Positions 867 to 31,572 are shown, counted from the first letter of the stretch. The stretch: 64,000 nt of DNA from Clostridiales bacterium (GCA_031287685.1 JAITSQ010000028.1:609-64608); one strand, 5' to 3'. Program-made: numbers and translations. Notes: generated by a model not told the origin, from the letters alone.

Positions 867-884
867 AATCAAGGAGGGCGAGCA

Positions 885-4094: not shown

Positions 4095-4201
4095 AATTAT
4101 CCGCTAAATATTTTCCTCAAAACCGCCGATATTATATTTGAGGAATAACTAAAATTTTTACCGCTTAAAATATTCGCGCGACGCGGGAAAGTTGGAAAGC
4201 A

Positions 4202-4975
4202 ATGGTACGCGGTCTTTACACGTCAGGAATGGGTATGATTACGGCTATGAACAAGTTTGACGTCATATCAAACAACATAGCCAACGCCGGCACCACCGGC
4301 TATAAAAAGGACAACGTAATAACGCAGAGCTTCTCGGAGGAGCTTATGCGCCGTTTGAACGACCCCGCGCTTAATCAGATAAGCGCGCCGGACGTTAAAC
4401 TCGGCCCGGTTAGCCTTGGCGTTTTTGTGGACAACATCTTCACGGATTTTTCAACCGGCGCTTTTTCCGTCACGGATAACCCGCTTGACCTATGCATACA
4501 GGGGGATGGCTTTTTCGCCGCTTCCGTCGCCAATTCCGCCGGGGAGACCTCCGAAATGTACACCAGGGACGGTTCGCTGACCCTTCTTAACGGCCTTCTC
4601 GTGACGAATGGCGGCGCGCCCCTTGTCGGACAGAGCGGCAGCCCCATAACCGTCCCCAACGGCAATATCTCCATAAACGAACACGGCGACGTTTACGTCA
4701 ACGGCGAGTTTATCGACCGCTTGAAAATGGTGAGTTTCACCGACAACGCCTCCTTGCGCAAACACGGAGACAACTTTTACACAACGACCGAGCAGAGCCA
4801 GCAGGCTGACTTTAAGGGCGCCGTGGCTCAAGGGATCGCTGAAAAATCAAACGTCAACTCCGTGCGCGAAATGGTTGATATGATTGCGGTCAACCGCCTT
4901 TACGACGCTAATCAGCGCGTAATAACGACGGTTGACGCCACCCTTCAGCAAGCCGTCAGCGAAATAGGCAAATAA
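4202..4975 (+). CDS. flhO: Flagellar basal-body rod protein (FlgF/FlhO-like)
   Basis: N-terminal ISNNIANAGTTGYKKD and C-terminal VREMVDMIAVNRLYDANQRVI rod-protein motifs. Confidence 0.85.
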   Translation: MVRGLYTSGMGMITAMNKFDVISNNIANAGTTGYKKDNVITQSFSEELMRRLNDPALNQISAPDVKLGPVSLGVFVDNIFTDFSTGAFSVTDNPLDLCIQGDGFFAASVANSAGETSEMYTRDGSLTLLNGLLVTNGGAPLVGQSGSPITVPNGNISINEHGDVYVNGEFIDRLKMVSFTDNASLRKHGDNFYTTTEQSQQADFKGAVAQGIAEKSNVNSVREMVDMIAVNRLYDANQRVITTVDATLQQAVSEIGK

Positions 4976-5008
4976 TCCAACGATAAAACGCGTTCAGCGA
5001 AAAAACAT

Positions 5009-5253
5009 TAAGAACCTGTTCCCATAGGTATAAATGCCGGATCCCCTCGTTTTCGCTTCGCGAAAACGCTCGTGACGAGCGAATTTTTACAGCTTCAAGG
5101 CGCGATGAGCGCCGCGTACCCGTACTCGGTGTTTTTTCGTGCCTAATGCCGCACGAAAAAGCCACCTTCTTGGTACGCAAGCGAAGCGCAACGAATAAGC
5201 CGTAAAAATTCGCCGTAAAGTCGGCGTCTATATCCTATGGGAACAGGTTCTAA
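5009..5253. repeat. Family A repeat, copy A2 (long form, ~190 nt extra interior)
   Basis: Arms AAGAACCTGTTCCCATAGG (5010-5028) and CCTATGGGAACAGGTTCT (5234-5251). The interior holds a nested hairpin GCGAATTTTTAC (5079-5090) / GTAAAAATTCGC (5202-5213). Confidence 0.8.
5125..5172 (-). repeat. Hairpin module H, single copy inside A2 (reverse orientation)
   Basis: The reverse complement reads CAAGAAGGTGGC-TTTTTCGTGC-GGCATTAG-GCACGAAAAA-ACACCGAG. This is near-identical in layout and loop to module 1 of B1 (8430-8479). Confidence 0.7.
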
Positions 5254-5277
5254 TACCCCGAAAGGATTGTTTTATTT

Positions 5278-6114
5278 ATGATGCGCTCCCTCTGGACGGC
5301 CGCCTCCGGCATGACCTCCCAACAGCTTAACATCGACACGATTTCAAATAATCTGGCCAACGTGAACACCACGGGCTATAAAAAGGAAAGAATGGAGTTT
5401 AAGACGCTCCTTTACCAGACTATGCAGAGGGCGGACCAAGACCCCGCCAACACCCCCGCGCGCCCCGTCAACCTCCAGGTGGGCCACGGCGTGCGCCCTA
5501 TAGCCACCGCCCGCGCTTTCACAACGGGTTCGTTTCAGCGCACGGATAACGCGCAGGATTTCGCCATTGAGGGCGACGGCTTCTTTATAATCAACCGCGG
5601 CGCAGACCCGGCCACCGGGGAGGACGACATTACCTATACCCGAGACGGCTCCTTCAAAACGGCGGTCGTCGCCGACGGGACAATGCTGACCACCGCCGAG
5701 GGATACCCCGTTTTAAGCGTGGACGGCGAACCGATTGTAATCCCGCCGGAAGTGCTTATGAAAGACGTGACCGTTGACGAGAACGGTAATATGGGATACG
5801 CCAACGCCGAGGGCCAATATGAGGATTTAGGCTTCCAATTCGCGCTTGTGCAGTTTAGCAACCCGCAGGGGCTTGAATCCGTCGGCTCTAACCTTTTCAA
5901 GCAGACCGTGGCTTCCGGCGAGCCTCTTTCGGAGGCGGACGGCGAGACGAACAAAACAAGCCGCCTGCGCCAGAATTTTCTTGAGATGAGCAACGTGGCC
6001 GTCGCCAATGAAATGGTTGACCTGATTATAGCCCAGCGCGCGTACGACCTCAACTCAAAGGTCATCACCACAAGCGACGAGATGCTTCAGACCGCGAACG
6101 CTCTGAAGCGGTAA
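5278..6114 (+). CDS. flhP: Flagellar basal-body rod protein FlgG/FlhP
   Basis: Motifs ISNNLANVNTTGYKK and NEMVDLIIAQRAYDLNSKVITTSDEML. Confidence 0.9.
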   Translation: MMRSLWTAASGMTSQQLNIDTISNNLANVNTTGYKKERMEFKTLLYQTMQRADQDPANTPARPVNLQVGHGVRPIATARAFTTGSFQRTDNAQDFAIEGDGFFIINRGADPATGEDDITYTRDGSFKTAVVADGTMLTTAEGYPVLSVDGEPIVIPPEVLMKDVTVDENGNMGYANAEGQYEDLGFQFALVQFSNPQGLESVGSNLFKQTVASGEPLSEADGETNKTSRLRQNFLEMSNVAVANEMVDLIIAQRAYDLNSKVITTSDEMLQTANALKR

Positions 6115-6190
6115 CAATAACTGAACTTTCTTGCAATTTTAAGGAAAATTTTCACAAGAAGTATCCGGAAAGCGGGAAGGGAGTGTTTTT

Positions 6191-6571
6191 TTGGACATAT
6201 CGGCAATCGGCGGAGGTTCCGCTTTAACCGGCCAAGCCGCGCGGACGGCGCAAACAGCCGCGGACGAACAGCGCGCGAAGTCCTTTGAGGAGGCCCTCCA
6301 AACGGCGCGGACCCGCGAAGACGACGCGGGGCTTAAGGAAGCCTGCTTTGAGTTCGAGTCATATTTTATTCAAACAATGTTTCGCGAAATGCGCAAAACT
6401 ATTGACGATTCACATTCGTTGCTGCCAAAAAGCAACGCGGAGAACATTTTTACAGATATGCTCGACGAGGAATATTCAAAAAATCTGGCGAAATCAGGCG
6501 GCATAGGCTTGGCCAAAATGCTCTATTCTCAGATTTCAAAAGAAGAAACGGCGCGGAAGCCTTCCGTATAA
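6191..6571 (+). CDS. Rod-binding protein (FlgJ N-terminal-like, no muramidase domain)
   Basis: FESYFIQTMFREMRKT matches the rod-binding family motif; TTG start. Confidence 0.65.
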   Translation: MDISAIGGGSALTGQAARTAQTAADEQRAKSFEEALQTARTREDDAGLKEACFEFESYFIQTMFREMRKTIDDSHSLLPKSNAENIFTDMLDEEYSKNLAKSGGIGLAKMLYSQISKEETARKPSV

Positions 6572-6595
6572 CCGGGCTTCAACGCCAATAAATAT

Positions 6596-6630
6596 CAAAA
6601 AAACACGCCCGTAAAACGGCGCGTTTTTTA
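6596..6630. terminator. Probable bidirectional intrinsic terminator
   Basis: A-run, ACACGCC / GGCGCGT imperfect stem, then a T-run, between convergent genes. Confidence 0.4.
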
Positions 6631-8247
6631 TTTGTTCTCTTTCTCCCTTGCCAGCATAGCCCTGTATTCGTTCGTGGCCATCCCCGTCAGCTGCTTGAAC
6701 ACCCCTCGGAAATGCGCCGCGTCGTCGTACCCTATTTTCAGGGCGATTACATTGTCGGTCATATCCAAGTTTTTAAAGAGCCTTTTCGCCGCGTCTATCC
6801 GCACCCGCACAATATAATCATAGCACGACATTTTGTCCGAATCCATAAAAAGGCGGTTCAGAAATTCGCTCGTCGTTTTAAGGCGCAAAGCGAGCTTGGC
6901 GAGCGTTATATTCTCATAGTAGTTTTCCTCTATATACTTCTGGGCGGTTTCCAGTATCTCGATATTGCGCTCCTTGCGAATCTGCTGGGTATAGGCACAA
7001 AGCTCCCGCAGGCAGCCCGACAGATATTCTATCGCCTCGCGCGCGGTTTTGAGGCTCAGCGCGTCGCGTACTGAAAAAAAGGAGGTCACGTCATATTCGG
7101 CGGTTTCGTCCTGTTCCATAGCGTAACGCCCTATTGAAAACATAAGCTCCATAACGAAACGGTGGACAAGTTTTTCCGACGCCCCTCCCCCGCTCTCAAA
7201 ATCATCCGCTATCTGGCGGAGCATGCTTTCGCAGTACTCGTATTCCCCTATTACGGCGGCGCGGGCCAGCCGCCCCTCTTTTTCCGGCGAACGCTTGTAG
7301 GTCAAGCGGTTGTTCGGCTCCATATAATGAATGGGAATCACCACGCCGCGCCCCATATAAAAGCGGTACTGAAGCGCGGAAAGGGCCTCCCGGTAAGACA
7401 CCGATATTTGAGACGGCGCTCCATACGTCCGCCCAAGCCCGATTGTAATCTTTATATTCAGCTTTTCCTCCGAATCGGCTATAATTTCCGAGCAAAGCTC
7501 CATCAGTTCCTCAAACTCCAAATTCTCCGAAAAAACGCACACGCCGCAGTTAAACCGCGGGATAAAGGCGAAGCCGGCGTATCCCTTCCTGGCTATGCTG
7601 TCGGCTATGAGGCAGTTTACCTTATATACCATAAGGTGCTTCTCCGCCTCGCCTATGTTGCGGATAAGCTGCTTAAACTTGTCTATACGCGCCACAAAAA
7701 CGGTATAAACGCTTTTCAGGCGAAAACCGAAATACTTGAACGAGCTTAAAATCTCGTTATCGTCGAGCACTCCGCCCTCGATGAGCATATGCAGGAATTT
7801 TTCCTTAAACATCGGCATTTCACGCCGGTAGTCTACGACGACACGCTCATCCCGCCGCTTTTTAGCGTAATAGTTGTCAAAAAAACGAATCGCGTGCTCC
7901 ATACACCGTTTGAAATCAAGCGGCTTTACCGGACGGTACATAAAGTCCAGCACGCCGTATTCCGTGACGTTTTTTAAATATTCCGCGTCGTTATACGAGC
8001 CGTACAGGATAAATTTAGTATTCGTATACGTTTTGCTGACGTCCTGGATTATTTTTTTGCCCGCCGCGCCGAAAAAGCGTATATCGGCTATAATAAGGTC
8101 AGGCGCGGACTCGGCCATGGCTTTGTCAAGCCCCGCTGACGACGACAGCGCGCTTACGTTTTTAATCGACGGGAAGGACATTCGCAAGTATGTCCTGAAG
8201 TTGCGCACGCTCTCCTGGTCGGTATCGAGTATTAAAAGTTTAAGCAT
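6628..8247 (-). CDS. Response regulator with AraC-type HTH output (YesN-like)
   Basis: Receiver motifs LLILDTD, LIIADIRF and RPVKP; C-terminal AraC HTH (IALKIGYDDAAHFRGVFKQLTGMATNEYR). Confidence 0.85.
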   Translation of the reverse strand: MLKLLILDTDQESVRNFRTYLRMSFPSIKNVSALSSSAGLDKAMAESAPDLIIADIRFFGAAGKKIIQDVSKTYTNTKFILYGSYNDAEYLKNVTEYGVLDFMYRPVKPLDFKRCMEHAIRFFDNYYAKKRRDERVVVDYRREMPMFKEKFLHMLIEGGVLDDNEILSSFKYFGFRLKSVYTVFVARIDKFKQLIRNIGEAEKHLMVYKVNCLIADSIARKGYAGFAFIPRFNCGVCVFSENLEFEELMELCSEIIADSEEKLNIKITIGLGRTYGAPSQISVSYREALSALQYRFYMGRGVVIPIHYMEPNNRLTYKRSPEKEGRLARAAVIGEYEYCESMLRQIADDFESGGGASEKLVHRFVMELMFSIGRYAMEQDETAEYDVTSFFSVRDALSLKTAREAIEYLSGCLRELCAYTQQIRKERNIEILETAQKYIEENYYENITLAKLALRLKTTSEFLNRLFMDSDKMSCYDYIVRVRIDAAKRLFKNLDMTDNVIALKIGYDDAAHFRGVFKQLTGMATNEYRAMLAREKENK

Positions 8248-8379
8248 CGCGCCGGCCTCCGAAACAAAATGAGTGACTATTTATTATATCACAACTTACA
8301 TTTTTACGCAACTGTCTTTTCTGACTTTTTAAGGCCTAATACTAATCCCTGATTTCTTTCCGGTGCGATTTTTGCGTTT

Positions 8380-8622
8380 TAGAGCAATTCCATGTTTGAT
8401 TGGCGTTCTTCAAGCCGAAAATCGCGGGCAAGAAAGGGGCTTTTTCGGGCGGCATTAGGCCCGAAAAAACACCGGCACGAAGGGGGCTTTTTCGCGGGGC
8501 AGTAACCGCGAAAAAACACCGGCACGAAGGGGGCTTTTTCGCGGGGCAGTAACCGCGAAAAAACACCGGCTTTAACGCGTTTTCGGAGCGGAATAACGCC
8601 AATATCAAACGGAATTGCTATA
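8380..8622. mobile_element. Family B MITE-like element, copy B1 (three H modules), nested in C1
   Basis: TA-GAGCAATTCC...GGAATTGCTA-TA. The uninterrupted site in C2 has a single TA. Confidence 0.8.
8430..8570 (+). repeat. Three tandem H hairpin modules (8430-8479, 8480-8526, 8527-8570)
   Basis: Unit AAGGGGGC-TTTTTCGCGG-GGCAGTAA-CCGCGAAAAA-ACACCGGCACG. Modules 2 and 3 are identical. Confidence 0.85.
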
Positions 8623-8807
8623 AGCGAAGTTTGACGACTATTTTAATCGGGATTAGTATAATAACATTATTTACGTTTATCATAACATAGCCGCCATAAA
8701 AAAATCAAGCCGGTTCCGCGCGAATCCGCAAAATTTTGTTGTGTTTCCCGCCGAGTTCAATTATAATTAAGACAATACCGTTACATCATTTATAAGGAGG
8801 ATTTTTT

Positions 8808-10796
8808 ATGAGCCAATCGGAAAACCAGACCATTTCCGCAATCCGTTTCCTGGCGGCGGACGCCGTGCAGAAAGCCAACTCCGGCCACCCCGGCCTGCCT
8901 CTCGGCGCGGCCCCGGCCGCCTATACCCTTTGGGCCAAACACCTTCGGCACAATCCCAAAAACCCGAAATGGCAGGCCAGGGACCGTTTCGTACTCTCCG
9001 CCGGCCACGGCTCAAGCCTTCTGTATTCGCTCCTGCATATTTTCGGCTACGGGCTTAGCCTGGACGATATGAAAAGCTTCCGCCAGGCGGGGAGCCTGAC
9101 CCCCGGACACCCCGAATACCGCCACACCCCCGGCGTGGAAGTGACCACCGGGCCGCTCGGCCAGGGCATAGCGAACGCCGTCGGCTTCGCTATGGCGGAG
9201 GCGCACACGGCCGCCGTTTTCAACACGCCCGACTTTAAGTTCGTGGATAACTATACCTACGCTCTCTGCGGCGACGGCTGCCTTATGGAGGGAATAGCGC
9301 ACGAGGCGGTTTCCCTGGCGGGAACTCTCCGGCTGAATAAGCTGATTCTGCTTTACGACTCAAACGGCATAACCATAGAGGGCAGCACGGGCATAGCCTT
9401 CCGGGAGGACGTGCGCGCGAGTTTCACCGCCTGCGGCTGGAACGCCCTGCTCGTAGAGGACGGCAACGACGTCTCCTCCATAGACGCGGCTATCGCGAAA
9501 GCCAAAACCTCCGACAAGCCCACAATAATTGAGGTTAAGACTATTATCGGCTACGGCGCGCCCAACAAGCAGGGCAAGCAATCCGCGCACGGAGAGCCGC
9601 TCGGCGCGGAGGAACTGTCCGCCGCCAAGAAAAACCTCGGCTACGACCATCCGCCGTTCACTGTGACGGAGGAAGTCCGCGCTCATATGGACAGCGTAAT
9701 CAAAGGCTTAGAGGCGCTTGAGGCCGATTATAACAAGCGGTACGACGCTTACCGGGCCAAAAACCCCGAAGCCGTAAAAAAATATGAGGATTTCCTGTCG
9801 GGAAAGCTCCCCGATTTGCTGAACAATGAGGATTTCTGGACATTTGAAGGGAATCTGGCCACGCGCGTATCCTCCGAAACCGTGCTGAATAAGGTGTGCG
9901 CGCTCGTGCCGTCGCTTTTCGGCGGCTCCGCCGACCTGGCCCCCTCTACAAAGACCCTGATGAAAGGGCGGGGCGATTTCTCGGCGGAAACCCCGGAGGG
10001 TTCTAATGTCCATTTCGGCATACGGGAGCACGCGATGACCGCCATAGCCAACGGAATAGCGCTTTACGCGCCGCTTATCCCCTACGTTTCGGGCTTCTTT
10101 GTTTTCTCTGACTATATGAAGCCCGCAATGCGCATTTCCGCGCTTATGGGCCTGCGCGTAATCAATATCCTGACGCACGATTCTATCGGCGTGGGCGAGG
10201 ACGGACCCACGCACCAGCCAATTGAGCAGCTGGCGGCGCTCCGGAGCATACCTAACTTTACCGTAGTTCGCCCCTGCGACTCCAACGAAACCGCCGCCGC
10301 TTGGTATATCGCGCTTAACAACACAAACGGACCCACGGCCCTCGCCCTGACCCGCCAAAACCTGAAGCTCCTGCCGGAAAGCGGCAAGGGCGCGCTTAAA
10401 GGCGCGTATATACTTAAAGATTCCGAAAAAGCCGTGCCTGACGTTTTGCTTATGGCCTCCGGCTCCGAAGTGGGCTTAATCTATGACGCTTGGGAAATCC
10501 TGCGGAAAGACGGCGTTGACGCGCGGGTCGTAAGCATGCCCTCCTGGGAGGTTTTCGAGAAGCAGGACGCCGCGTATAAGGAAAGCGTCCTCCCCCGCGC
10601 GGCGCGCGCTCGTCTGGCGGTGGAAGCGGCCTCCCCGTTCGGGTGGGAGCGCTACGTCGGCCTTGACGGGAAAATTATAGCTATGCCCGGCTTTGGCGAG
10701 AGCGCCCCGGCGGACGCGCTGTTCCCGAAATTCGGGTTTACGGTTGAAAACGTGGTCAAGGCGGCGAAAGAAGCCGCCGAGGCCAATAAAATATAA
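8808..10796 (+). CDS. tkt: Transketolase
   Basis: Motifs SGHPGLPLGAAP, GDGCLMEGI and THDSIGVGEDGPTHQPIE. Confidence 0.95.
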   Translation: MSQSENQTISAIRFLAADAVQKANSGHPGLPLGAAPAAYTLWAKHLRHNPKNPKWQARDRFVLSAGHGSSLLYSLLHIFGYGLSLDDMKSFRQAGSLTPGHPEYRHTPGVEVTTGPLGQGIANAVGFAMAEAHTAAVFNTPDFKFVDNYTYALCGDGCLMEGIAHEAVSLAGTLRLNKLILLYDSNGITIEGSTGIAFREDVRASFTACGWNALLVEDGNDVSSIDAAIAKAKTSDKPTIIEVKTIIGYGAPNKQGKQSAHGEPLGAEELSAAKKNLGYDHPPFTVTEEVRAHMDSVIKGLEALEADYNKRYDAYRAKNPEAVKKYEDFLSGKLPDLLNNEDFWTFEGNLATRVSSETVLNKVCALVPSLFGGSADLAPSTKTLMKGRGDFSAETPEGSNVHFGIREHAMTAIANGIALYAPLIPYVSGFFVFSDYMKPAMRISALMGLRVINILTHDSIGVGEDGPTHQPIEQLAALRSIPNFTVVRPCDSNETAAAWYIALNNTNGPTALALTRQNLKLLPESGKGALKGAYILKDSEKAVPDVLLMASGSEVGLIYDAWEILRKDGVDARVVSMPSWEVFEKQDAAYKESVLPRAARARLAVEAASPFGWERYVGLDGKIIAMPGFGESAPADALFPKFGFTVENVVKAAKEAAEANKI

Positions 10797-10895
10797 GGAA
10801 AGCGGCAAAAACGGCGGGCGGCTCAGCGGCGGCAAGCTGACGCGGAAGCGAATCGCGGCTGACGTCGATTAGCCCGAAAATAAGGAGCGGTTCAA

Positions 10896-12614
10896 ATGCC
10901 TCTTGACGGCACGGTGGTGGCGGCGGTCACGCGAGAGTTTCAGACTCTCGCCGCCGCCCGCATAGATAAAATATATCAGCCCGAAACGGACGAACTCATT
11001 ATCTCCGCGCGTGGGAACGGCGTTTCGCGCAAAATCCTGCTCTCGGCCGCTCCCTCCTGCCCCAGGGCGCATTTTACGCAGCTTAGCAAGCCCAACCCGG
11101 AGACCGCCCCGCAGTTCTGTATGGTGCTCCGCAAATTTTTGAGCGGCGGGCGGGTTTTATCCGTATCTCAGCCGGACTTTGAGCGCGTTATAGAGATACA
11201 AATAGAACAACTCGACGAAATGGGCGACCGCGTGACAAGAAGCCTCCTCATCGAAATTATGGGCAAGCACAGCAATATCATTCTCTGCGAGGGCGGCCGG
11301 ATTATCGACTCCATAAAACGCGTCCCGCACGAAAAAAGCAGCGTGCGGGAGGTCCTGCCGGGGCGGCCTTACCAGCCGCCGCCGTCTCAGGGCAAAACGA
11401 ACCCGCTCCTGCTTTCCTACGAAAACTTTATTGAAAATTTTTCCAAATATCCCGACGCGGAGACGGCCGTTTTTCAAGGCTACACCGGCATAAGCCCGGC
11501 GCTGGCCTCCGAAATTGTAAGCGCCGCGCAATCCGGAGAGCCGCGCGCGGTTTTCGAGTCCTTCTCTCTTGTTATGGAACGCGTTAAAAACGGAGACTTC
11601 AGCCCCGCCATTTATTCTGAAAACGGCAGAAACGTTGATTTTTCGGCAATCCCGCTGACCGCGTATAAACGCCCGGCCTCCCCGCGCCCCTCCGTCAGCG
11701 ATATGCTTGAGGCGTATTACGAAACGCGCGACCGCCAAGCGCGGGCCGCCGCCAAAGGCGCCGACCTCAAAAAACTGCTTAATAACCTGCTTTCTCGCGC
11801 CGCCGGCAAGCAGGAGGCGCACCGGCGCACCCTGCGCGAAATCTCCGGGCGTGAGCGCCTGAAGCTCCGCGGAGAGCTGATTACCGCGAATATTTACGCG
11901 CTGAAGGCAGGGATGACAGCGGCGGCGCTCGTGAATTTTTACAGCGAATCCGGAGAAACTGAGGAAATCCCGCTTGACCCGCAAAAAACGCCCGCCGAGA
12001 ACGCTCAGGCCTATTTTAAGCGGTACGCCAAGGAAAAACGCGCCTACGAAGCGGTGACGGCGCAAATCGACCAGACGGACGCGGAAATCTCCTACTTGGA
12101 ACAGGTGCGGCAAAACCTCCTTTTTTGCGAAGAGGAGGCCGCCCTTGACGAAATCCGGCAGGAGCTTCACGAAGAGGGATACATTAAAAAAGCGGCGAAG
12201 AAGCGGGGCGCAAAGCCCAGAAAGACCGCTCCTCTGCGCTTCCTGTCCTCCGACGGGCTTGAGATTTTTGTCGGGCGCAACAACCGCCAAAATGAGGAAC
12301 TGACTCTGAAAACGGCCGGAAATTCCGATATTTGGCTGCATACCAAGGTTATCCCCGGCTCCCACGTGATAATCCGCGCGGGAGGCGCCTCCGCGCCCGA
12401 CAGCACAATAGAAGAAGCGGCGCGGCTGGCCGCCTATTTCAGCAAAGGGCGCGGCGCGGGCCTTATCGCCGTGGACTACACCACGCGAAAAAACGTTAAA
12501 AAGCCGCCCGGCGCGAAGACCGGCATGGTAACCTACGACAATTACAAAACGGCTTACGTGGAGGCGGACGAAGCGATAATACAGCCGTTTCTGCTTAAAA
12601 ACATCGAAAATTAG
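10896..12614 (+). CDS. rqcH: Ribosome quality-control factor RqcH (NFACT / FbpA family)
   Basis: NFACT-N start (MPLDG...IDKIYQP) and C-terminal NFACT-R motif (DIWLHTKVIPGSHVIIR). Confidence 0.85.
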   Translation: MPLDGTVVAAVTREFQTLAAARIDKIYQPETDELIISARGNGVSRKILLSAAPSCPRAHFTQLSKPNPETAPQFCMVLRKFLSGGRVLSVSQPDFERVIEIQIEQLDEMGDRVTRSLLIEIMGKHSNIILCEGGRIIDSIKRVPHEKSSVREVLPGRPYQPPPSQGKTNPLLLSYENFIENFSKYPDAETAVFQGYTGISPALASEIVSAAQSGEPRAVFESFSLVMERVKNGDFSPAIYSENGRNVDFSAIPLTAYKRPASPRPSVSDMLEAYYETRDRQARAAAKGADLKKLLNNLLSRAAGKQEAHRRTLREISGRERLKLRGELITANIYALKAGMTAAALVNFYSESGETEEIPLDPQKTPAENAQAYFKRYAKEKRAYEAVTAQIDQTDAEISYLEQVRQNLLFCEEEAALDEIRQELHEEGYIKKAAKKRGAKPRKTAPLRFLSSDGLEIFVGRNNRQNEELTLKTAGNSDIWLHTKVIPGSHVIIRAGGASAPDSTIEEAARLAAYFSKGRGAGLIAVDYTTRKNVKKPPGAKTGMVTYDNYKTAYVEADEAIIQPFLLKNIEN

Positions 12615-12663: not shown

Positions 12664-13200
12664 TCATTGCGCGCCGGCGGCCCCCTCGCTTTCCCACGCT
12701 TGAGAAAACTCCCGCTCGGCAAACAGCGAAGCCAGCCCGCTGATTTGCTTCAGGCGCAGAAGCTCGTCCGTATCCATACCGATATTCTTCATAATCCATT
12801 CGTCGCTTGCGCCAGACTCGACTAACCTCGCGACAATATCCACCATAAGATTAATTGAGTGGACGCCCCTGGCTCGGTTATGCCTGATTGTGCTCGCGAC
12901 GCGGTTGGCGAAGGGTTTGTTGATTACGGATACCGGCAGGCAATTTTTTTCGCGCTCAGCGATTTCCGGGCAGCTTTTCATCGCCATATACCGGTGAAAC
13001 CCGTCCACAATCTCGTAGCGGTCGATATCCGCGAGATAATAGCAAACGATAGGCATAGTGTAGCCGTCCTCCAGAATGGACTTAATCAGGAGCCTCATTT
13101 CAGGCGGCGGCACGCGGTTTGGGTTGTAAGCGTTGGCGTCTATTTTCTCAATGGAAACCGGGCGCACAGAGTAGACCGGGCTTACAAAATGCTCTCCCAT
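12664..13200 (-). CDS. ParB/sulfiredoxin-domain protein (IbrB / DndB-like)
   Basis: Motifs YNPNRV...ILEDGYTMPIV and IVDGFHRY. ATG 13200 is preceded by GGGAGGGAGG. The track ORF start at 13296 would overlap the upstream gene by 115 nt. Confidence 0.7.
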   Translation of the reverse strand: MGEHFVSPVYSVRPVSIEKIDANAYNPNRVPPPEMRLLIKSILEDGYTMPIVCYYLADIDRYEIVDGFHRYMAMKSCPEIAEREKNCLPVSVINKPFANRVASTIRHNRARGVHSINLMVDIVARLVESGASDEWIMKNIGMDTDELLRLKQISGLASLFAEREFSQAWESEGAAGAQ

Positions 13201-14495
13201 ATCGCTATCGCCTCCCTCCCCTTCTGCAGCTCGTCTTTCGTCTGGGAAAAGCCCATATATTTGCAGGAAGTATCGTTCTTCATAATAGTGACGCACATTC
13301 GCTTATAGCTCGGCAGGAGCCTGAAATCCTTCAGCTTGACGTCGTCCGGATATTCGGCGAAGCGGACGACTTCATACTCGCTCTTGTATTTCCGGTTGCC
13401 GGAGGGCTTTCCGAGGCTCTCAAACGCGATTCCGGCCCGCCGAAGCTCCGCCACGGTTCTTATGGGCAAGGCTCCGCCCTTTTCCAGCCAGTACCAGCAA
13501 GAGGATTCAAATTTACGCTCGTAAATATCCCGCGTTTTCCGCGGCAGGGTTTCTAAGAGGAATTTTACATAGGTTTTCCACGTATGCCCTTTGGGGAGGG
13601 AAATATCCCTGTAGCCGACGGCTTTCGTGCCGCCGTATATCGCTCCGAAATTCGCGCCGTTCACCCGCCCGACCAAGCGGCTCCAAGTGTTCGGCTCAAT
13701 CGCCCGGTAGAGTTTAAGCGCCTCCACGCCGCATTCGTGAAACGGGTTCGCCACCCGCATTTCCCCTATCGGGACCCCGGCCAGATAATACAGGTCATAA
13801 AGTTTGTTATAGTCAAAGCCAAACCGGGCGTTAGCCGTCCAGACGTCCTCCACCATCCAGTCGTACAAGGGGTAAAAGTTAAAAATATTCATGGATATGC
13901 GCGTGCTGTAAGCAATCCTGCCGAACATCCGGAAGGTATTGCTTCGCGTTACGGCGTGATAGCGGTTCAGACTCTCTTGAGAGCGTATCCCCACCAAAAC
14001 GGCGGTTCTTTTCGCGTTATTTTTCTTGTGCAGCCATTTCCCGAATTTAGTCTGAAAAACATAATCCGACATACCGACCTCGAAAAAATCAAAGTCGTGA
14101 TTATCAATCGTAATAGAGCCTTCCGGCCTTTCGCGGAGCCATATGTCCTTTTCCTCCGGATTCCACGGCAGCCAGGTCGATTGATGCATAGACACGCCGC
14201 ACGAAGCCGAAACCGGCATACATAGGTGGTAGTAGTCAAAGTAGGGATATTTCCGCATACAGCGGGCTACATAGTCTATAGTATGCTGATAGTTGCCCTC
14301 ATAATCAATATGATAAACGGAAACCTTAGAGGACGGGCGGCGGCGCGCGTAATAAAGGTTCACAAGCTCCAGCAGCAGCCCGGAGTCCTTCCCGCCGGAA
14401 AAAGACACGATTACGTGGTCAAATTTTGAGAAAATATATGTAAGCCTCTCCATAAAAGCGTCCAGCACATTTTTATCAATATATTTTTTCCCCAT
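13182..14495 (-). CDS. PP-loop ATP-pyrophosphatase, PAPS-reductase family (IbrA / DndC-like)
   Basis: PP-loop VIVSFSGGKDSGLLL plus a long C-terminal extension; overlaps the ParB-like gene by 19 nt. Confidence 0.8.
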   Translation of the reverse strand: MGKKYIDKNVLDAFMERLTYIFSKFDHVIVSFSGGKDSGLLLELVNLYYARRRPSSKVSVYHIDYEGNYQHTIDYVARCMRKYPYFDYYHLCMPVSASCGVSMHQSTWLPWNPEEKDIWLRERPEGSITIDNHDFDFFEVGMSDYVFQTKFGKWLHKKNNAKRTAVLVGIRSQESLNRYHAVTRSNTFRMFGRIAYSTRISMNIFNFYPLYDWMVEDVWTANARFGFDYNKLYDLYYLAGVPIGEMRVANPFHECGVEALKLYRAIEPNTWSRLVGRVNGANFGAIYGGTKAVGYRDISLPKGHTWKTYVKFLLETLPRKTRDIYERKFESSCWYWLEKGGALPIRTVAELRRAGIAFESLGKPSGNRKYKSEYEVVRFAEYPDDVKLKDFRLLPSYKRMCVTIMKNDTSCKYMGFSQTKDELQKGREAIAIWESIL

Positions 14496-19102: not shown

Positions 19103-20104
19103 TTACGCCTTGAGCGCCCCCTCCACGGCTACGGCCACGGCTACCGTCGCGCCGACCATCGGATTGTTACCCATACCGAGGAAGCCCATCATTTCAACGT
19201 GCGCGGGTACGGAGCTGCTTCCGGCGAACTGCGCGTCGGAGTGCATACGGCCCATCGTGTCGGTCATACCGTAAGAAGCCGGGCCGGCCGCCATATTGTC
19301 CGGGTGAAGCGTGCGGCCCGTGCCGCCGCCCGAAGCCACGGAGAAATATTTTTTGCCGAGATCGACACATTCCTTTTTATAGGTGCCCGCGACGGGGTGC
19401 TGGAAGCGCGTCGGGTTTGTGGAGTTGCCCGTAATGGACACGTCCACGCCCTCCTTATGCATAATAGCCACGCCTTCGCGCACGTCGTCCGCGCCGTAGC
19501 AGCGAACGGTTTTGCGCTCACCCTGAGAATACTCGATTTCCTTTATTATGTTCAGCTCCCCGGACATATAATCGAACTGGGTCTGTACATAAGTAAAGCC
19601 GTTTATGCGGGAGATAATCTGCGCCGCGTCCTTGCCCAGGCCGTTGAGGATAACTCGCAGAGAGGATTTCCGGCTTTTGTTGGCGTTCCGGGCTATGCCT
19701 ATCGCGCCCTCCGCCGCCGCGAAGGACTCGTGTCCCGCCAGAAAAGCGAAACACTTCGTGTCGTCGCGAAGGAGCATCGCGCCGAGGTTGCCGTGGCCAA
19801 GCCCTACTTTCCTGTCCTCCGCCACTGAACCCGGTATGCAGAAGGACTGGAGGCCTATTCCTATATCCTCCGCGGCTTCGGCGGCGCCTCCGCGAGCCTT
19901 TTTCAGCGCGATAGCCGCGCCCACGACATACGCCCAGCAGGCGTTTTCAAAGGCAATCGGCTGAATCCCTTTTGTTATATTGTAGGGATCAATCCCCTTG
20001 TCCTTGCAGATTTTTTCCGCTTCCTCAATAGAGCCGATTCCGTTCGCGGACAGGGCCGCGTTTATTTTGTCTATGCGGCGCTCGTAGCTTTCAAATAATG
20101 ACAT
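19103..20104 (-). CDS. GGGtGRT family protein (function unknown)
   Basis: Contains the eponymous SGGGTGRTLHPD motif. Confidence 0.8.
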   Translation of the reverse strand: MSLFESYERRIDKINAALSANGIGSIEEAEKICKDKGIDPYNITKGIQPIAFENACWAYVVGAAIALKKARGGAAEAAEDIGIGLQSFCIPGSVAEDRKVGLGHGNLGAMLLRDDTKCFAFLAGHESFAAAEGAIGIARNANKSRKSSLRVILNGLGKDAAQIISRINGFTYVQTQFDYMSGELNIIKEIEYSQGERKTVRCYGADDVREGVAIMHKEGVDVSITGNSTNPTRFQHPVAGTYKKECVDLGKKYFSVASGGGTGRTLHPDNMAAGPASYGMTDTMGRMHSDAQFAGSSSVPAHVEMMGFLGMGNNPMVGATVAVAVAVEGALKA

Positions 20105-20121
20105 TTTAAGCCGCCCCCTTT

Positions 20122-20823
20122 CTACTGGTGACGCGGGTCGATATATTTTACCGCCCCGTCGGCTTCTGTGAAACGACCGTACTTGCTCGTGGCCGCTTTG
20201 AGCGCTTCGTTCGCGTCCGTACCTTTTTTAATGGCCTCCATGGCCTTGCCCAGGTGAATAAATTCATAGCCTATAACAAGGTCGCCGGAGTCGAGCGCCA
20301 GGCGGGTCACGTAACCCTCCGCCATTTCAAGGTAACGCGCGCCCTTGGCTTTCGTCCCGAACATAGTGCCTACTTGGGAGCGCAGGCCCTTGCCCAAATC
20401 CTCAAGCCCCGCGCCGATAGGCAGCCCGCCTTCGGAAAACGCCGTCTGCGAGCGCCCGTAGACGATTTGCAGGAAAAGCTCCCTCATAGCGACGTTTATC
20501 GCGTCGCACACAAGGTCGGTGTTCAGCGCCTCAAGGAGCGTCTTGCCGGGCAGAATCTCCGCCGCCATAGCCGCCGAGTGAGTCATGCCCGAACAGCCGA
20601 TGGTCTCTACAAGGGCCTCCTCGATTATGCCGTCCTTGACGTTGAGCGTCAGCTTGCACGCGCCCTGCTGCGGCGCGCACCAGCCCACGCCGTGCGTCAG
20701 CCCGCTGATGTCCTTGTTTTCCTTAACCTGGACCCACCTGCCCTCTTCGGGTATGGGCGCGGGCCCGTGGTACGCGCCCTTTGCTACAGGGCACATATGT
20801 TCTACTTCCGCGGAATACATCAT
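20122..20823 (-). CDS. NifU/IscU-N-terminal-like scaffold-domain protein
   Basis: GWCAPQQGACKLTL...ETIGCSGMTHSAAMAAE resembles an IscU-type Cys arrangement. Confidence 0.6.
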   Translation of the reverse strand: MMYSAEVEHMCPVAKGAYHGPAPIPEEGRWVQVKENKDISGLTHGVGWCAPQQGACKLTLNVKDGIIEEALVETIGCSGMTHSAAMAAEILPGKTLLEALNTDLVCDAINVAMRELFLQIVYGRSQTAFSEGGLPIGAGLEDLGKGLRSQVGTMFGTKAKGARYLEMAEGYVTRLALDSGDLVIGYEFIHLGKAMEAIKKGTDANEALKAATSKYGRFTEADGAVKYIDPRHQ

Positions 20824-20961: not shown

Positions 20962-21612
20962 TCATCTCGGCGTTTTCCTTGACTCGTCCAAAAATTTCAG
21001 CGGCTGAGCTATCGCCGGAACTATTATGAATCCCGAAATCGCCTCCGGCACGCCGTTCGTCACGGCTATTCCAAGGAGCAGGGCGCGCGCGGCGGCGGAG
21101 TCCGGATAGCCGTTCCGCGCCCAGACTGAGCTGCCCCTGTGCAGTAAATATATCCCGCCAAGGACGAATACCGTGTTTATAACCGCGCCCGCCGCGCCGC
21201 ACAGCGAGTACGCCAGGGCGCGCTTCACGGACGGGCCGCCCGGAAAAGGCTTCATTATAAAGTTAAAAAACCCGCACAGGTACGCGGGGGCCAGGCCCAC
21301 AACGGCGCGGGGCACGACCGACACGAGCGGGTCTCGCATAAGCGGCGTGAGCAGGCCCGTCGGCGCGACAATGGCTCGGGTCATCGAGAGAAGCCCCCAA
21401 ATAAGCCCGAGGACGACCCCCACCGGCGCGCCGTAAACAAGCGAGCCGGCGATAACCGTGATGTGTATCAGCGTAATGCTCAAAGGCCCGATAGTTATGT
21501 ATCCCCAACCGGGCACGGCGGTCTGTATTATTATTATGGCGACAAATACGCCAAGCACGGATATTTTGCGTATTTTAGAAGCCGATGCGTCCCGCGTCAT
21601 TTTTAGAATCAA
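20962..21612 (-). CDS. ECF-transporter S-component-like membrane protein (substrate unknown)
   Basis: About 6 TM segments, ~200 aa, with an S-component-like N-terminus ([18 protein letters not shown]). Confidence 0.5.
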
Positions 21613-27328: not shown

Positions 27329-27358
27329 TTGACGACCCTATGACTTACGTGTTATACT
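27329..27358 (+). promoter_or_regulatory. Promoter TTGACG-18 nt-TATACT with TG extension
   Basis: Hexamers at 27329-27334 and 27353-27358; TG at 27350-27351. Confidence 0.5.
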
Positions 27359-27394
27359 TACTTATCCGCGCAAGCAATACGCGGGCTGACGACA

Positions 27395-27650
27395 ACTGAA
27401 TATTCGCGCTTTTTGCGCCGGGGAGGCTTCCGCTTTAGGCGATGCCCCGCTCGGTGGGGAAATGGAATCCGGTGAAAATCCGGAGCGTGTGCGGCTGAAA
27501 AGCCAATCACCGACGCCGTGAGCGCATTGAGGCCGCAAGCCGAGGCGAAAGCCGGTCACTGTTCCTCCTTGGAATGGGAAGGCTGGGTTGCGGACGCGGA
27601 AATCCTCTTGGATTTCCGGAATTGCGTAAGCCGGAAGACGAGCAGGGGGC
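27395..27650 (+). promoter_or_regulatory. Cobalamin riboswitch (aptamer)
   Basis: GGGGAAATGGAATCCGGTGAAAATCCGGAGC, B12-box-like GGTCACTG...GGGAAGGC and 3' AAGCCGGAAGACGAGCAGG. Confidence 0.75.
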
Positions 27651-27658
27651 GTTATCCG

Positions 27659-27690
27659 CGCGGGGCGTTTCCGCTCCGGATTTTTTTACG
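27659..27690 (+). terminator. Riboswitch expression-platform terminator
   Basis: CGGGGCG-TTTC-CGCTCCG stem (one G-U pair) followed by GATTTTTTT. Confidence 0.55.
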
Positions 27691-27796
27691 CACCCGCGTT
27701 GGTTAAATGTTTATGGGAATACGGCCATTGACGACTTTTGTGTTGTCGTGGCCTTTTATATTGCGTCCGCGGAAAACGACCTACAGGAGGGGTTTT

Positions 27797-30796
27797 ATGA
27801 GAAACACAAGGTTTTCCGGGCGCTTCGCGGCGTTTTTGCTGTCGTTCTTAGCGGCGGTTTCCGGCCTGCGCGTCCCGGCGCTCGCGTCGGGTTCCGTCAG
27901 CGTTGCGCTGTCTTATCAGGCGGACGGCAGCGGGTTTCGCCTGGCGCGGCGGGCAGTCGCCGTTTCGCCGGGGCTTTCGGAGGAATACGGGTACGCGGAC
28001 GCGTATTACGGCACGGCCGCGACTGCCCTTGACGCTATTGTCGCCGCGCATATCGCGGCGCTCGGCGAAGGCAATGTAAGCGGCAGCCTAACGGTCGGCC
28101 CGACGGGCTTTTTGTCAAACTTTATGGGCGACGGCTCCGGTAATTTCGTCTATTTCGTCAACGGCTCCCTCTCGGGCGCGGCGGCGGGTTCTGTGCGGCT
28201 GAACGACGGCGACGCCGTGGAACTATTCTCTATACAGGACGCCTACGCTTATTCAGACGCGCGCGCCTGGTTCGAGCGCGACGGTAAGCGTGCCGGCGCG
28301 CTTACCGTCGGCAAGGGCGTTAGTTTCGACCTCGCCCTCAAGGGGATTGATTGCGTAATTTACGGCGAAGGCTCCGGCGCGGGCCTTTACGGATACAGGG
28401 ACGGGATTGAGGGCGCGCTTGCCGTCCTTCTGGCGGACGACCCCGACGGCGGCGCTTATATCGACGCCCCCTTAGGCGAAACGGGCGCGGGCGGCGTTAT
28501 TTCGCTTTCTTTCGACACTCCGGGGCTGTATATCCTTTCGGCGATTGATTATGACACCGATTACGGCTTTCCGCTGATGTCGCCGTGGCTTGCGGTCACG
28601 GTGACGAATAGCGGCGGCGCGCCCGCGGTCACGTCAAGCGGCTTTGCCAACCCGCCGCCCGCGCCCCTCGCGCCGTCGGAAGTCCGGACCGACGCGCGGA
28701 CGGCCCTCGGCGACACTTTGTCGTACCTAGTCAGCAGCCAGGCCCCCTCCCCCCAATACGGGCAAGAGTGGGAAATCCTCGCTCTGGCCCGCTCCGGGCG
28801 CTCCGTCCCGGCTGGATATTACGAAGGGTATTACGCCAGCGTCAAGGACAAACTGGCGCGAGTCAGCTCGAATCAGCTCTCCGCCAATTCCACGGATAAT
28901 TCCCGCCTGGCCCTGGCGCTGACGGCAATCGGCGTTAACGCGGCTAACGCGGAGGGGCGCAATCTGCTCGCTCCCCTCGCGGATTATGACTACGCCACGG
29001 GTCCGGGCATAAACGGCGCGGTTTACGCGCTTCTGGCTTTCGACGCGAAAAATTACGCCATACCGCCCGCGCCCTCCGGAGGCGCCCAAACGTCGCGGGA
29101 GAATCTCATAGCGTTTATTCTGGCGCGGGAGCTTCCCGGCGGCGGCTTTTCGTGGAGCGGCGCGGGCGAGATAGACCCGGACATAACGGCAATGGCCCTG
29201 CAGGCCCTCGCGCCCTATAAAAACAGCAGCGCGGACGCCGGCGCGGCAATCGCGCGCGCTCTGGCCAAGCTGACGGCGGCGCAGGATTATTATGGCGGGT
29301 ACGCCTCGTGGGGCAGCGTCAGCGCGGAAAATATGGCGCAGGTCATAGTGGCGGCGGCGGCGCTCGGCCTTGACCCCTCGGCGGACCCGCAATTTACGAA
29401 AGGCGGCGGCAGCGCCGTTTCCGCGATGCTCCGGTTTTACGCGGACGGCGGCGGCTTCCAAAGCGCTTCCTCCCCAGGCGCGGCTAACGCCATGTCCACA
29501 TATCAAGCGGCTTACGCGCTCGCCGCCTATAGCCGCCTGCTGAATCACCAAAATCCGCTGTACGATATGCGCGACTGCGATATCACCCTGACGGAGGGCG
29601 GCGGCGGTCAGTCCGGCGGCGGGGGAAGCGGCCCCGGCGGCTCCACAAGCGCCGTCACGGAGATAACTGTCGTTTTCCGGCTAATCGGCGGCACAATACA
29701 CCTTGACGGCGCGGAGGGCCACTCTCGGTATATCGAATGGATTCCGTACTCGCGGTATAGTTTTGAGCAAAACCAAGTCAGCGTCTGCGACGCGCTGCTT
29801 CGCGCGCTGAACGAAGCGGGGCTTGACCAGGAGGGCGCGGAGGGCAATTATCTTTCGGGAATCCGCGCGCCCGCCTCTCTTGGCGGCTATTGGCTCCGCG
29901 AGTACGACGACGGGCCGTATTCCGGCTGGCTGTACTCGGTAAACGGCGTTTATCAGCAAACCGGCATTAAAGATTATCTGCTTTCCGACGGCGACGTCGT
30001 GCTCGTGCACTACACCGACGATTATACGCGGGAAACGAATCTTGACAATTCAGGCGGCGGCACGGGCGGCGGCGGGGTCTCCGGCGGCGGGGCGGCCAGC
30101 GAAACCGAGCCGCCCCCTATCGCCGCTTCCGAAACCGCGCCGCCGAAGGAAAACACGCTCCCCGACGACGAGGGCGAGGACCCGGACGAAAAAACCGACG
30201 CGCCGCGAGAATTCCCCTCGGAGGGCTGGGAAAACCCCTTCAGCGACGTTTCCTCCGACGACTGGTTTTATGAGGCGGTCCGAGAGGCCCAGACAAGCGG
30301 CTTAATGGTCGGGCTTCCCGACGGCTCTTTCGCGCCGGATTCCCCGGCGACGCGTGCTATGGCGGCGCAAATCCTTTTCCGGTTTGAGAAAGAACCCGAA
30401 GCGGCGGGCGCCGAATTTGACGACGTTAAATCTGGCGACTGGTACGCGGACGCGGTGGCTTGGGCCAGCGAGCGCGGCGTCGCCCAAGGGTACGGCGGCG
30501 GGCGCTTCGGCGCGGGCGACGGCCTCACTAACGAGCAGCTAGCGGTTATGCTGCGCCGCCTCGCCGGGCTGATTGGCATAGACACGACGGAAACGGAATC
30601 GGAACATTATCCGCGCTTCGCGGATACAGGCGGCGCTTCGGAATGGGCCGAAGCCGCCGTGAAATGGGCGTATCCTAAGGGTTTGCTTGCTCAAGAATCC
30701 CCGGAGGCGATTAACCCAAAAACCGTCCTGACCCGCGCCGAAGCCGCGCATATAATTACAACATTTTTGAAGCTTGCTGTACAGCGAAGTGAATAA
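27797..30796 (+). CDS. Secreted SLH-anchored protein with two DUF4430 domains and a prenyltransferase/transcobalamin-like alpha/alpha toroid
   Basis: AGGAGG SD before ATG 27797. Signal peptide is followed by a DUF4430-like segment, toroid repeats (GGGFSW, DPDITAMALQAL), a second DUF4430 segment (YSVNGVY...DGDVVLVHY) and three SLH motifs. Confidence 0.8.
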   Translation: MRNTRFSGRFAAFLLSFLAAVSGLRVPALASGSVSVALSYQADGSGFRLARRAVAVSPGLSEEYGYADAYYGTAATALDAIVAAHIAALGEGNVSGSLTVGPTGFLSNFMGDGSGNFVYFVNGSLSGAAAGSVRLNDGDAVELFSIQDAYAYSDARAWFERDGKRAGALTVGKGVSFDLALKGIDCVIYGEGSGAGLYGYRDGIEGALAVLLADDPDGGAYIDAPLGETGAGGVISLSFDTPGLYILSAIDYDTDYGFPLMSPWLAVTVTNSGGAPAVTSSGFANPPPAPLAPSEVRTDARTALGDTLSYLVSSQAPSPQYGQEWEILALARSGRSVPAGYYEGYYASVKDKLARVSSNQLSANSTDNSRLALALTAIGVNAANAEGRNLLAPLADYDYATGPGINGAVYALLAFDAKNYAIPPAPSGGAQTSRENLIAFILARELPGGGFSWSGAGEIDPDITAMALQALAPYKNSSADAGAAIARALAKLTAAQDYYGGYASWGSVSAENMAQVIVAAAALGLDPSADPQFTKGGGSAVSAMLRFYADGGGFQSASSPGAANAMSTYQAAYALAAYSRLLNHQNPLYDMRDCDITLTEGGGGQSGGGGSGPGGSTSAVTEITVVFRLIGGTIHLDGAEGHSRYIEWIPYSRYSFEQNQVSVCDALLRALNEAGLDQEGAEGNYLSGIRAPASLGGYWLREYDDGPYSGWLYSVNGVYQQTGIKDYLLSDGDVVLVHYTDDYTRETNLDNSGGGTGGGGVSGGGAASETEPPPIAASETAPPKENTLPDDEGEDPDEKTDAPREFPSEGWENPFSDVSSDDWFYEAVREAQTSGLMVGLPDGSFAPDSPATRAMAAQILFRFEKEPEAAGAEFDDVKSGDWYADAVAWASERGVAQGYGGGRFGAGDGLTNEQLAVMLRRLAGLIGIDTTETESEHYPRFADTGGASEWAEAAVKWAYPKGLLAQESPEAINPKTVLTRAEAAHIITTFLKLAVQRSE

Positions 30797-30906
30797 AAGC
30801 TGAAAAACCGTGATAAAACCCTCGAAAACCCGATGAAGTCATTGACCGCGGGCGCGAAACCAGCGACGCGGCCGGCAAACTCACGCGGGTTCCGGCGACG
30901 CCAAGC

Positions 30907-30937
30907 AAATTGCCAACCTTCGAGGTTGGCAATTTTT
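30907..30937 (+). terminator. Intrinsic terminator
   Basis: AAATTGCCAACC-TTCGA-GGTTGGCAATTT followed by TT. Confidence 0.65.
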
Positions 30938-31310: not shown

Positions 31311-31351
31311 AGTACACTGTGTTTTAAGTACACTGTGTTTTAAGTACACTG
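31311..31351. repeat. Tandem repeat, 16-nt unit AGTACACTGTGTTTTA x 2.6
   Basis: Direct reading of the sequence. Confidence 0.9.
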
Positions 31352-31572
31352 GCAGTTAATTGAACCTTATTTTTGGAAGGAGTCCAAATTACTCGGCCAT
31401 ATTCATCAGGCTCATACAACCCCAACTTTCGTTCAGGATCGAAAGCGCCCTCTGTTTCAGGAGGAATGGGGGCATAAAGCCATCCATTCCGAATGAAAAC
31501 CTGCCCCGAAATGAGGGCTTTCAGTTTCATTGAAAAACAAATTAATGAAAGTATCCGCGTCAGGCGCGCCAA
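31324..31572 (-). CDS. Hypothetical small ORF (possibly a gene fragment)
   Basis: ORF only, in a lower-GC patch; its 3' end runs into the tandem repeat. Confidence 0.25.
   Translation of the reverse strand: MARLTRILSLICFSMKLKALISGQVFIRNGWLYAPIPPETEGAFDPERKLGLYEPDEYGRVIWTPSKNKVQLTASVLKTQCT

Follow-up and report, generated by a model that had tools for sequence, protein, structure and literature searches.

A cobalamin riboswitch precedes the gene of a predicted wall-anchored transcobalamin-like protein in a Clostridiales bacterium: a candidate corrinoid-capture unit and its family in Bacillota

Bacterial proteins resembling the cobalamin carriers of animals were described when the SLBB superfamily was defined (Burroughs, Balaji, Iyer, Aravind 2007; Biol Direct 2:4; PMC1796856). 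These transcobalamin-like SLBB proteins contain a signal peptide, an alpha/alpha toroid fused on either side, and extra immunoglobulin-like (Ig) or tethering domains. Their operons were reported to encode a paralogous second SLBB protein, and operons with genes for a CbiO-like ATPase and a CbiQ-like membrane protein were described. On computational grounds, the proteins were predicted to scavenge vitamin B12 or its precursors, "a distinct metabolite" being allowed for archaea. Here we analyze one gene of this kind in a 64,000-nt stretch of DNA from a Clostridiales bacterium (GCA_031287685.1 JAITSQ010000028.1:609-64608), which in its entirety is called the window below. The gene occupies positions 27797..30796 of the plus strand, is preceded by a match to the cobalamin riboswitch, and encodes a secreted transcobalamin-like protein with S-layer homology (SLH) motifs.

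Three other characterized systems are relevant for comparison. The energy-coupling factor (ECF) transporter ECF-CbrT of Lactobacillus delbrueckii (PDB 6FNP, in which chain A is CbrT; eLife 2018, PMC5997447) is a proven importer of cobalamin and cobinamide. It was characterized without any extracellular binding protein, and neither CbrT nor an ECF module is encoded in the window. The Lsa1836-1840 operon of Lactobacillus sakei encodes an ECF-like transporter and two transcobalamin-like proteins, the beta-like Lsa1839 and the alpha-like Lsa1840; this operon was experimentally linked to heme uptake, and in homology models of the two proteins docked heme lay between them (bioRxiv 10.1101/864751). 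The L. sakei proteins are secreted, have the same folds as the window protein, and occur with an ECF-type transporter in a Gram-positive host. However, L. sakei makes the alpha and beta parts as two proteins from a transporter operon, with heme as the proposed ligand, whereas in the window they are fused, SLH-anchored, free of a transporter, and preceded by a cobalamin riboswitch. Finally, BtuG and BtuH of Bacteroides, which are products of B12 transport loci, capture corrinoids at the cell surface (eLife 2018, PMC6143338). They are lipoproteins of the Gram-negative outer membrane that work with BtuB, and the parallel with the window protein is one of function only. The BtuG and BtuH fold is not known to be related to that of the window protein, and no sequence relationship was seen, Pfam yielding SLH and DUF4430 only.

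The window gene is a member of the family defined in 2007, with which it shares the signal peptide, the combination of an SLBB (DUF4430) domain with an alpha/alpha toroid, and the additional Ig-like and surface-tethering domains. Unlike the operons described at that time, the window copy has no accompanying transporter genes. The B12-scavenging idea for this architecture is already published and was reached there independently (PMC1796856). Three points go beyond it, namely control by a riboswitch and how common this is, anchoring through SLH motifs, and the match to CbrT of an S component encoded beside relatives: the words riboswitch and SLH occur 0 times in that text, and the resemblance of the S component to CbrT was not known then.

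We interpret the locus as, probably, a self-contained B12-repressed corrinoid-capture unit, whose wall-bound product passes corrinoid to an importer encoded elsewhere. The initial annotation, made from the sequence of the window, had proposed a wall-tethered corrinoid scavenger, and all the features that it listed were recovered close to the given positions. Sequence profiles and a structure model support this proposal, because the RF00174 riboswitch match, DUF4430, and SLH are all significant, and because the best 13 PDB matches of the modeled protein are animal cobalamin carriers.

The leader of the gene starts with a sigma-70-type promoter-like site at 27329..27358 on the plus strand (TTGACG, an 18-nt spacer, and TATACT with TG upstream; 10/12 matches), exactly where a promoter had been annotated. 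The cobalamin riboswitch aptamer RF00174 follows at 27425..27661 on the same strand, with 39.1 bits against a gathering threshold of 31.5 (E 2.2e-6). In cmscan the match spans the full-length model, positions 1-189, and RF00174 is the sole Rfam family matched in the whole 64 kb. All motifs by which the initial annotation had recognized the riboswitch were located: GGTGAAAATCC at 27471, GGTCACTG at 27554 with GGGAAGGC at 27576, and AAGCCGGAAGAC at 27628. Aligned to the consensus, the motifs at 27471, 27554-27583, and 27628 make up the RF00174 core, that is, the GGUGAAAAUCC loop region and the B12 box. The closest homologue of the window protein (P0002, 58% identity) is encoded on L006, a contig from a metagenome, where its gene has other neighbors than the window gene. 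Its leader is 81% identical to that of the window gene, passes RF00174 in its own right at 48 bits, and, in an alignment read by eye, has a promoter-like site at the equivalent position.

The aptamer lies between the promoter-like site and the open reading frame (ORF), with two terminator-like hairpins downstream of it. The first one (27661..27687, plus strand; hairpin 27661-27678) consists of 7 pairs followed by GATTTTTTT, a run of seven U. Thus, the hairpin with T7 claimed in the initial annotation is present in the sequence, but it is weak, its folding energy of about -12 kcal/mol (z -0.7) being no better than that of shuffled sequence, and it is deleted in the L006 leader. The second hairpin (27723..27761, plus strand; hairpin 27723-27753, then UUUUAUAUU) starts some forty bases past the first and has a much stronger fold, with -18.7 kcal/mol and z -4.2. 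It is conserved: its L006 counterpart has -21.2 kcal/mol and z -6.3, the stem sequence having changed with the pairing kept. Because the second hairpin is conserved and stronger, and because the T7 hairpin is absent from L006, the former is at least as likely as the latter to be the regulated terminator, and it is possibly the true expression platform. The leader may therefore contain two tandem terminators, or only the second hairpin may be functional. A ribosome-binding site, AGGAGG, is located at 27785..27790 on the plus strand, 6 nt ahead of the ATG. At the other end of the gene an intrinsic terminator was found at 30907..30937 on the plus strand (a 13-bp stem then UUUUU; -20.6 kcal/mol, z -4.7), in agreement with the view that the gene ends at a terminator of its own.

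The single ORF anticipated from the sequence comprises 999 codons and a stop. Its product is identical to P0001, an NCBI protein from a metagenome-assembled genome (MAG) labeled 'Clostridiales bacterium' and named 'S-layer homology domain-containing protein'. All features described in this paragraph are on the plus strand. A signal peptide, residues 1-30 (27797..27886), is apparent by eye from the basic N-terminus, the hydrophobic core, and a cleavage position after ALA (ALA|SG). It is followed by a divergent SLBB/DUF4430-like domain, residues 31-150 (27887..28246), and by an Ig-like beta-sandwich, residues 151-290 (28247..28666), which consists entirely of beta strands in the AlphaFold model and has weak Ig-like matches in Foldseek. 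The alpha/alpha toroid, residues 300-582 (28694..29542), is the counterpart of the transcobalamin alpha domain; its helices are modeled with a predicted local distance difference test (pLDDT) mostly above 90. A Gly-rich linker, residues 600-619 (29594..29653), with model pLDDT below 50, connects it to the C-terminal SLBB/DUF4430 domain (PF14478), residues 620-745 (29654..30031), the counterpart of the transcobalamin beta domain. A Gly/Pro/Glu-rich spacer, residues 746-811 (30032..30229), leads to three SLH motifs (PF00395), residues 812-999 (30230..30793), the predicted cell-wall anchor.

The domain assignments made at the outset withstood closer analysis to different degrees. The three SLH motifs are significant in Pfam both for the whole protein (E 1e-25) and in a scan by segments, where PF00395 matches three stretches with E 6e-28; PDB matches to the SLH domains of Sap and other proteins were obtained as well. 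DUF4430 is found in two stretches of the whole protein (45.2 bits, E 1.3e-11). Taken alone, the C-terminal segment (residues 641-760) passes the PF14478 cut-off of 23.8 bits with 35.9 bits (E 1.1e-8), whereas the N-terminal segment stays below it (17.8 bits, E 0.0046). Nevertheless, when profiles of the N-terminal and beta-domain families are compared with each other in hhalign, they align with 97% probability and E 1e-10. In a separate AlphaFold model of the N-terminal module (pLDDT 78.8), Foldseek finds only weak Ig-like matches that come from the second half of the module. Thus, the presence of two DUF4430-like segments is supported by sequence profiles and not by structure search. The toroid repeats are confirmed by the modeled helices at residues ~300-582 and by a profile of 41 alpha domains of the family, which matches PDB proteins of the squalene-hopene-cyclase type with E 5e-13. 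For the corresponding profile of 41 beta domains, the top match in the PDB, at a marginal E of 0.0034, is 5NO0, the isolated beta domain of transcobalamin. Comparison of the protein with PF01122 (Cobalamin_bind) and prenyltransferase-like families, suggested together with these assignments, produced nothing significant in Pfam; the central region gave just a squalene-cyclase family match with E 0.083 (PF13243) in the segment scan.

Residues 29-760 were modeled with AlphaFold from an alignment with 25 homologues, giving a mean pLDDT of 80.8 and a predicted template modeling score (pTM) of 0.57. In this model, an N-terminal module rich in beta strands precedes the helical toroid, and a small alpha/beta domain at 620-745 follows behind a disordered Gly linker. 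When this model was compared with the PDB by Foldseek, as had been proposed, the 13 top matches were all rat, human, or bovine transcobalamin, intrinsic factor, or haptocorrin (E 5e-9 to 7e-7), with alignments of 470-496 columns that cover both the alpha and the beta domain. Weaker matches came next, namely complement and alpha-2-macroglobulin thioester domains, the farnesyltransferase beta subunit, and drimenyl diphosphate synthase. In the model, therefore, the overall two-domain architecture matches that of the eukaryotic cobalamin carriers: both combine an alpha/alpha toroid with a beta-grasp domain, and the beta domains share Pfam PF14478. The bacterial protein goes beyond the animal carriers in having SLBB-like and Ig-like domains in its N-terminal part, SLH motifs for attachment to the wall, and predicted regulation by a riboswitch.

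The family to which the gene belongs is very large. When 1.84 billion representative proteins were searched in full by HMMER with the alpha and beta region as a query, 5,047 clusters at 50% identity had E <=1e-10, many of them giant multidomain surface proteins. In GTDB, with each species represented by one genome, at least 545 relatives were confirmed. The best 79 loci all belong to Bacillota save for one Coriobacteriales MAG; among them are Paenibacillus, Bacillus, Cohnella, Ruminococcus bromii, Ruthenibacterium, and many Oscillospiraceae. For a survey of 85 non-redundant loci, ORFs were predicted and the query domains located in them. Alpha and beta domains occur there in any order and number, fused or split over several proteins, and often with SLH motifs. 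Family members of up to 5,079 aa, with up to 7 matched stretches in one chain, were observed among proteins P0121-P0263. The presence of several alpha-toroid copies per chain suggests multivalent surface capture arrays.

Clustering of neighboring ORFs in the 85 loci revealed three main groups, a fused double ATP-binding cassette (ABC) ATPase (50 loci), a membrane protein of 297 aa (40 loci), and an ECF S component (21 loci). The membrane protein is taken to be EcfT because of precomputed CbiQ matches in two loci, L001 and L002; the representative of the 297-aa cluster itself has no Pfam match. The S component was assigned by its PF12822 and PF07155 matches. ECF genes adjoin the family gene in 53 of the 85 loci, and the recurrent operon order is a wall-bound or secreted alpha protein (often preceded, as shown below, by the riboswitch), a small membrane-anchored DUF4430 beta protein, EcfT, EcfAA', and EcfS. 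One representative S component from these operons has CbrT as its best match (6FNP_A, E 1e-8). Like ECF-CbrT, these operons would be B12 acquisition systems of Bacillota. The name CbrT was reportedly given by Rodionov and co-workers in 2009, in J Bacteriol. In three Paenibacillus loci (L077, L078, and L081, at about 3000-6000), a riboswitch-controlled operon of alpha-SLH, beta, and ECF genes stands back-to-back with a LysR-type regulator and metE. The latter encodes the B12-independent methionine synthase. This arrangement links two B12-sparing responses in one region.

The association with the riboswitch is not limited to the window. In Rfam scans of four subsets, RF00174 was found upstream of the family gene, on its strand, in 3/4, 1/4, 6/10, and 10/11 loci. 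An nhmmer profile constructed from ten RF00174 hits produced 66 matches over all loci, every one on the plus strand, that is, the strand of the gene. With a locus counted as positive at nhmmer E below 1e-10 or when confirmed by Rfam, a same-strand cobalamin riboswitch is present in 49 of the 85 loci; for loci whose upstream sequence is intact and not cut by a contig end, the count is 43 of 58 (74%). The gene was originally described as encoded alone, without btuFCD or ECF-CbrT nearby. This is true in the window, yet it is a minority layout in the family. Since 14 surveyed riboswitch-positive loci, plus L006, have no ECF gene within 6 kb, the orphan arrangement is a recurrent minority form. Three loci with an SLH-anchored protein of the same N-Ig-alpha-beta-SLH build (L001, L008, and L009) have no riboswitch match even at E <=0.1; L008 is cut at its 5' end, and its upstream sequence is incomplete. 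Multiple riboswitch matches were seen in three other loci: four within 14 kb in L067 from an Aminipila MAG (689-12211), two in L073 (4444-8803), and two adjacent ones in L088 (163-685). Each of these matches precedes a different alpha/beta or transporter gene.

The mechanism that we propose would operate from one transcription unit, made up of the promoter, the cobalamin riboswitch with its terminator or terminators, one gene, and the final terminator. At low intracellular cobalamin, the leader would be read through and the protein displayed on the wall, where the three SLH motifs would retain it after secretion. Its alpha and beta domains would close on a corrinoid as in transcobalamin and concentrate it at the surface. 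The corrinoid would then be handed to an importer in the membrane whose genes lie elsewhere in the genome; judging from most relatives, this is most likely an ECF transporter that uses an S component of the CbrT type. With ample cobalamin in the cell, the aptamer would bind it and transcription would halt in the leader.

Several observations weigh against this interpretation. Long insertions keep the RF00174 score at a modest level, and P1, the outer helix, is badly paired in the cmscan alignment. About a quarter of the loci with intact upstream sequence have no riboswitch match. Sequence identity to the animal carriers is as low as 12-16%, PF01122 finds no match at E <=1 on the whole protein or at E <=10 on its segments, and by the family profile the alpha domain is nearer in sequence to terpene-cyclase repeats than to transcobalamin. 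The model differs from the carriers in domain orientation and does not reproduce the closed arrangement of transcobalamin, with a root-mean-square deviation of about 13 A and a target-normalized template modeling score of 0.43-0.49; here the linker is of low confidence, so the modeled orientation is uninformative either way. No transporter for the protein was found in the window, which extends 27 kb upstream and 33 kb downstream of the gene. In the searchable literature we found no corrinoid binding or B12 characterization of any bacterial member, and the L. sakei operon with its separate alpha-like and beta-like proteins was linked by experiment to heme uptake (bioRxiv 10.1101/864751).

The main rival explanation is that the ligand is heme or another tetrapyrrole, as proposed for Lsa1839 and Lsa1840. 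Heme and corrinoids are both large tetrapyrroles, the L. sakei models with docked heme and the link of that operon to heme uptake speak for it, and a distinct metabolite was considered by Burroughs et al. (PMC1796856), if for archaea. However, a cobalamin riboswitch precedes the window gene and most of its relatives, the representative S component of the relatives is nearest to the B12-specific CbrT, and the heme assignment in L. sakei rests in part on docking; we consider this alternative unlikely. Another scenario retains the corrinoid and dispenses with the importer. The protein would then be a stand-alone trap on the wall, serving for storage, for starving competitors, or for selecting among cobamide analogues. 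It would account for the lack of transporter genes on both flanks and for the recurrence of the orphan layout in other loci, and the two SLBB-type domains predicted for the protein are compatible with it. Repression by B12, on the other hand, is the logic of acquisition, and most family members are found in ECF transporter operons. Moreover, the transporter of this organism may be encoded elsewhere: S components of ECF systems with a shared module are typically scattered in the genome, and a solitary one is indeed present in the window. We therefore regard a free-standing trap, too, as improbable.

The toroid fold itself admits a third scenario, in which this domain works as a terpene cyclase or prenyltransferase would, or as a thioester trap similar to alpha-2-macroglobulin, acting on a wall or lipid substrate, and the link to the riboswitch is secondary. 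The cyclase-type matches of the alpha-domain profile and the weaker Foldseek matches to farnesyltransferase beta, drimenyl diphosphate synthase, and thioester domains could be read in this way. But the profile aligns to a generic toroid repeat, residues 321-454 of the best match, and this stretch comes after D303, the catalytic Asp that carries a mutation in the drimenyl diphosphate synthases of solved structure. A motif search of the 999-aa protein found neither DxDD nor the CGEQ thioester motif, nor LPXTG, and Cys and His are few in the protein (3 and 7, respectively). No Pfam model of prenyltransferases or cyclases reaches significance, the location is predicted to be extracellular, and the structural match of the whole architecture favors cobalamin carriers over the lower-ranking thioester domains. 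With the diagnostic motifs absent and the match confined to generic repeats, we reject both the enzyme and the thioester-trap readings of the toroid, considering them very improbable. Thus, roles limited to sequestration, as well as enzymatic ones, are less likely than corrinoid capture for an importer encoded elsewhere.

The genes around the locus are mostly of housekeeping function. Upstream of it are genes for CTP synthase, a HAD hydrolase, and elongation factor P, and downstream, on the other strand, are sigA, dnaG, thrS, ssb, rpoC, and rpoB, as determined by reading the translations, with Pfam for some of them. The other window ORFs of at least 200 aa were examined in the same way; neither btuFCD nor a complete ECF transporter was among them, nor any enzyme dependent on B12. 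The sole ABC system in the window is of a sugar type (Peripla_BP_4 and BPD_transp_2 in Pfam). A solitary ECF S component is encoded 6 kb upstream of the locus, at 20962-21612 on the minus strand (PF12822, E 8.8e-13), overlapping the end of a lytic-transglycosylase-like gene. It was considered as the missing CbrT and rejected, since it does not match 6FNP and in the PDB is most similar to 6ZG3_C and 4RFS_S (E 1e-22), which we take to be pantothenate-type S components. Its presence nevertheless suggests that a shared ECF energizing module, which a CbrT could use as well, is encoded elsewhere in the genome.

The GC content of the gene (63.7%) exceeds that of the window (55.6%). Horizontal transfer was rejected as an explanation, since the GC content at third codon positions (GC3), 0.73, equals that of neighboring housekeeping genes (0.70-0.745); the excess comes from codon positions 1 and 2, which are rich in Ala, Gly, and Pro codons. 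A replication-terminus signal, considered in view of the convergence of genes at ~31 kb and the positive GC skew at 22-28 kb, was rejected as well, as the skew only tracks the coding strand. Between the terminator of the gene and sigA, in a spacer of 47% GC, a perfect 16-nt tandem repeat, AGTACACTGTGTTTTA, is present in 2.6 copies at 31311-31351. An 82-aa ORF of the minus strand (31324-31572), for which Pfam gave no match, overlaps the repeat with its 3' end. Two further gene pairs on the minus strand were noted. At 19103-20823, a GGGtGRT-family protein (PF14057, E 1.6e-190) is encoded beside a protein with weak similarity to NifU, whose E of 2.6e-4 narrowly misses the Pfam cut-off. At 12664-14495, overlapping ORFs of 437 and 210 aa look by eye like a PAPS-reductase-type protein and a ParB-like partner, an IbrA/IbrB-like pair.

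The window gene is a well-supported but expected member of its family, and the value of the analysis lies more in the family picture. The arrangement of a riboswitch, transcobalamin-like capture proteins, and a CbrT-type ECF transporter is widespread in Bacillota. ECF transporters are defined in part by working without extracytoplasmic binding proteins. We see about an even chance that the transcobalamin-like proteins capture corrinoids for CbrT, and thus form an extracellular B12-capture layer for an ECF importer in many Bacillota, the window copy being a free-standing trap that serves a distant transporter. If so, the family-wide operon would contradict the rule that ECF transporters lack extracellular binding proteins, and the capture layer would be present in abundant gut Oscillospiraceae and Ruminococcus. 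The proteins would represent a Gram-positive counterpart of BtuG and a living relative of the ancestor of animal transcobalamin.

In summary, competition for B12 and its analogues shapes gut and environmental communities, and the capture machinery is well described just for Gram-negative bacteria, in the form of BtuB, BtuG, BtuH, and BtuF. The very large and apparently uncharacterized Bacillota family considered here is the best candidate for a Gram-positive equivalent. By tying this family to cobalamin riboswitches and CbrT-type ECF transporters, the survey turns the domain-level prediction of 2007 into a concrete, testable system, which bears on the existence of accessory binding proteins for ECF transporters and on the origin of animal transcobalamin.

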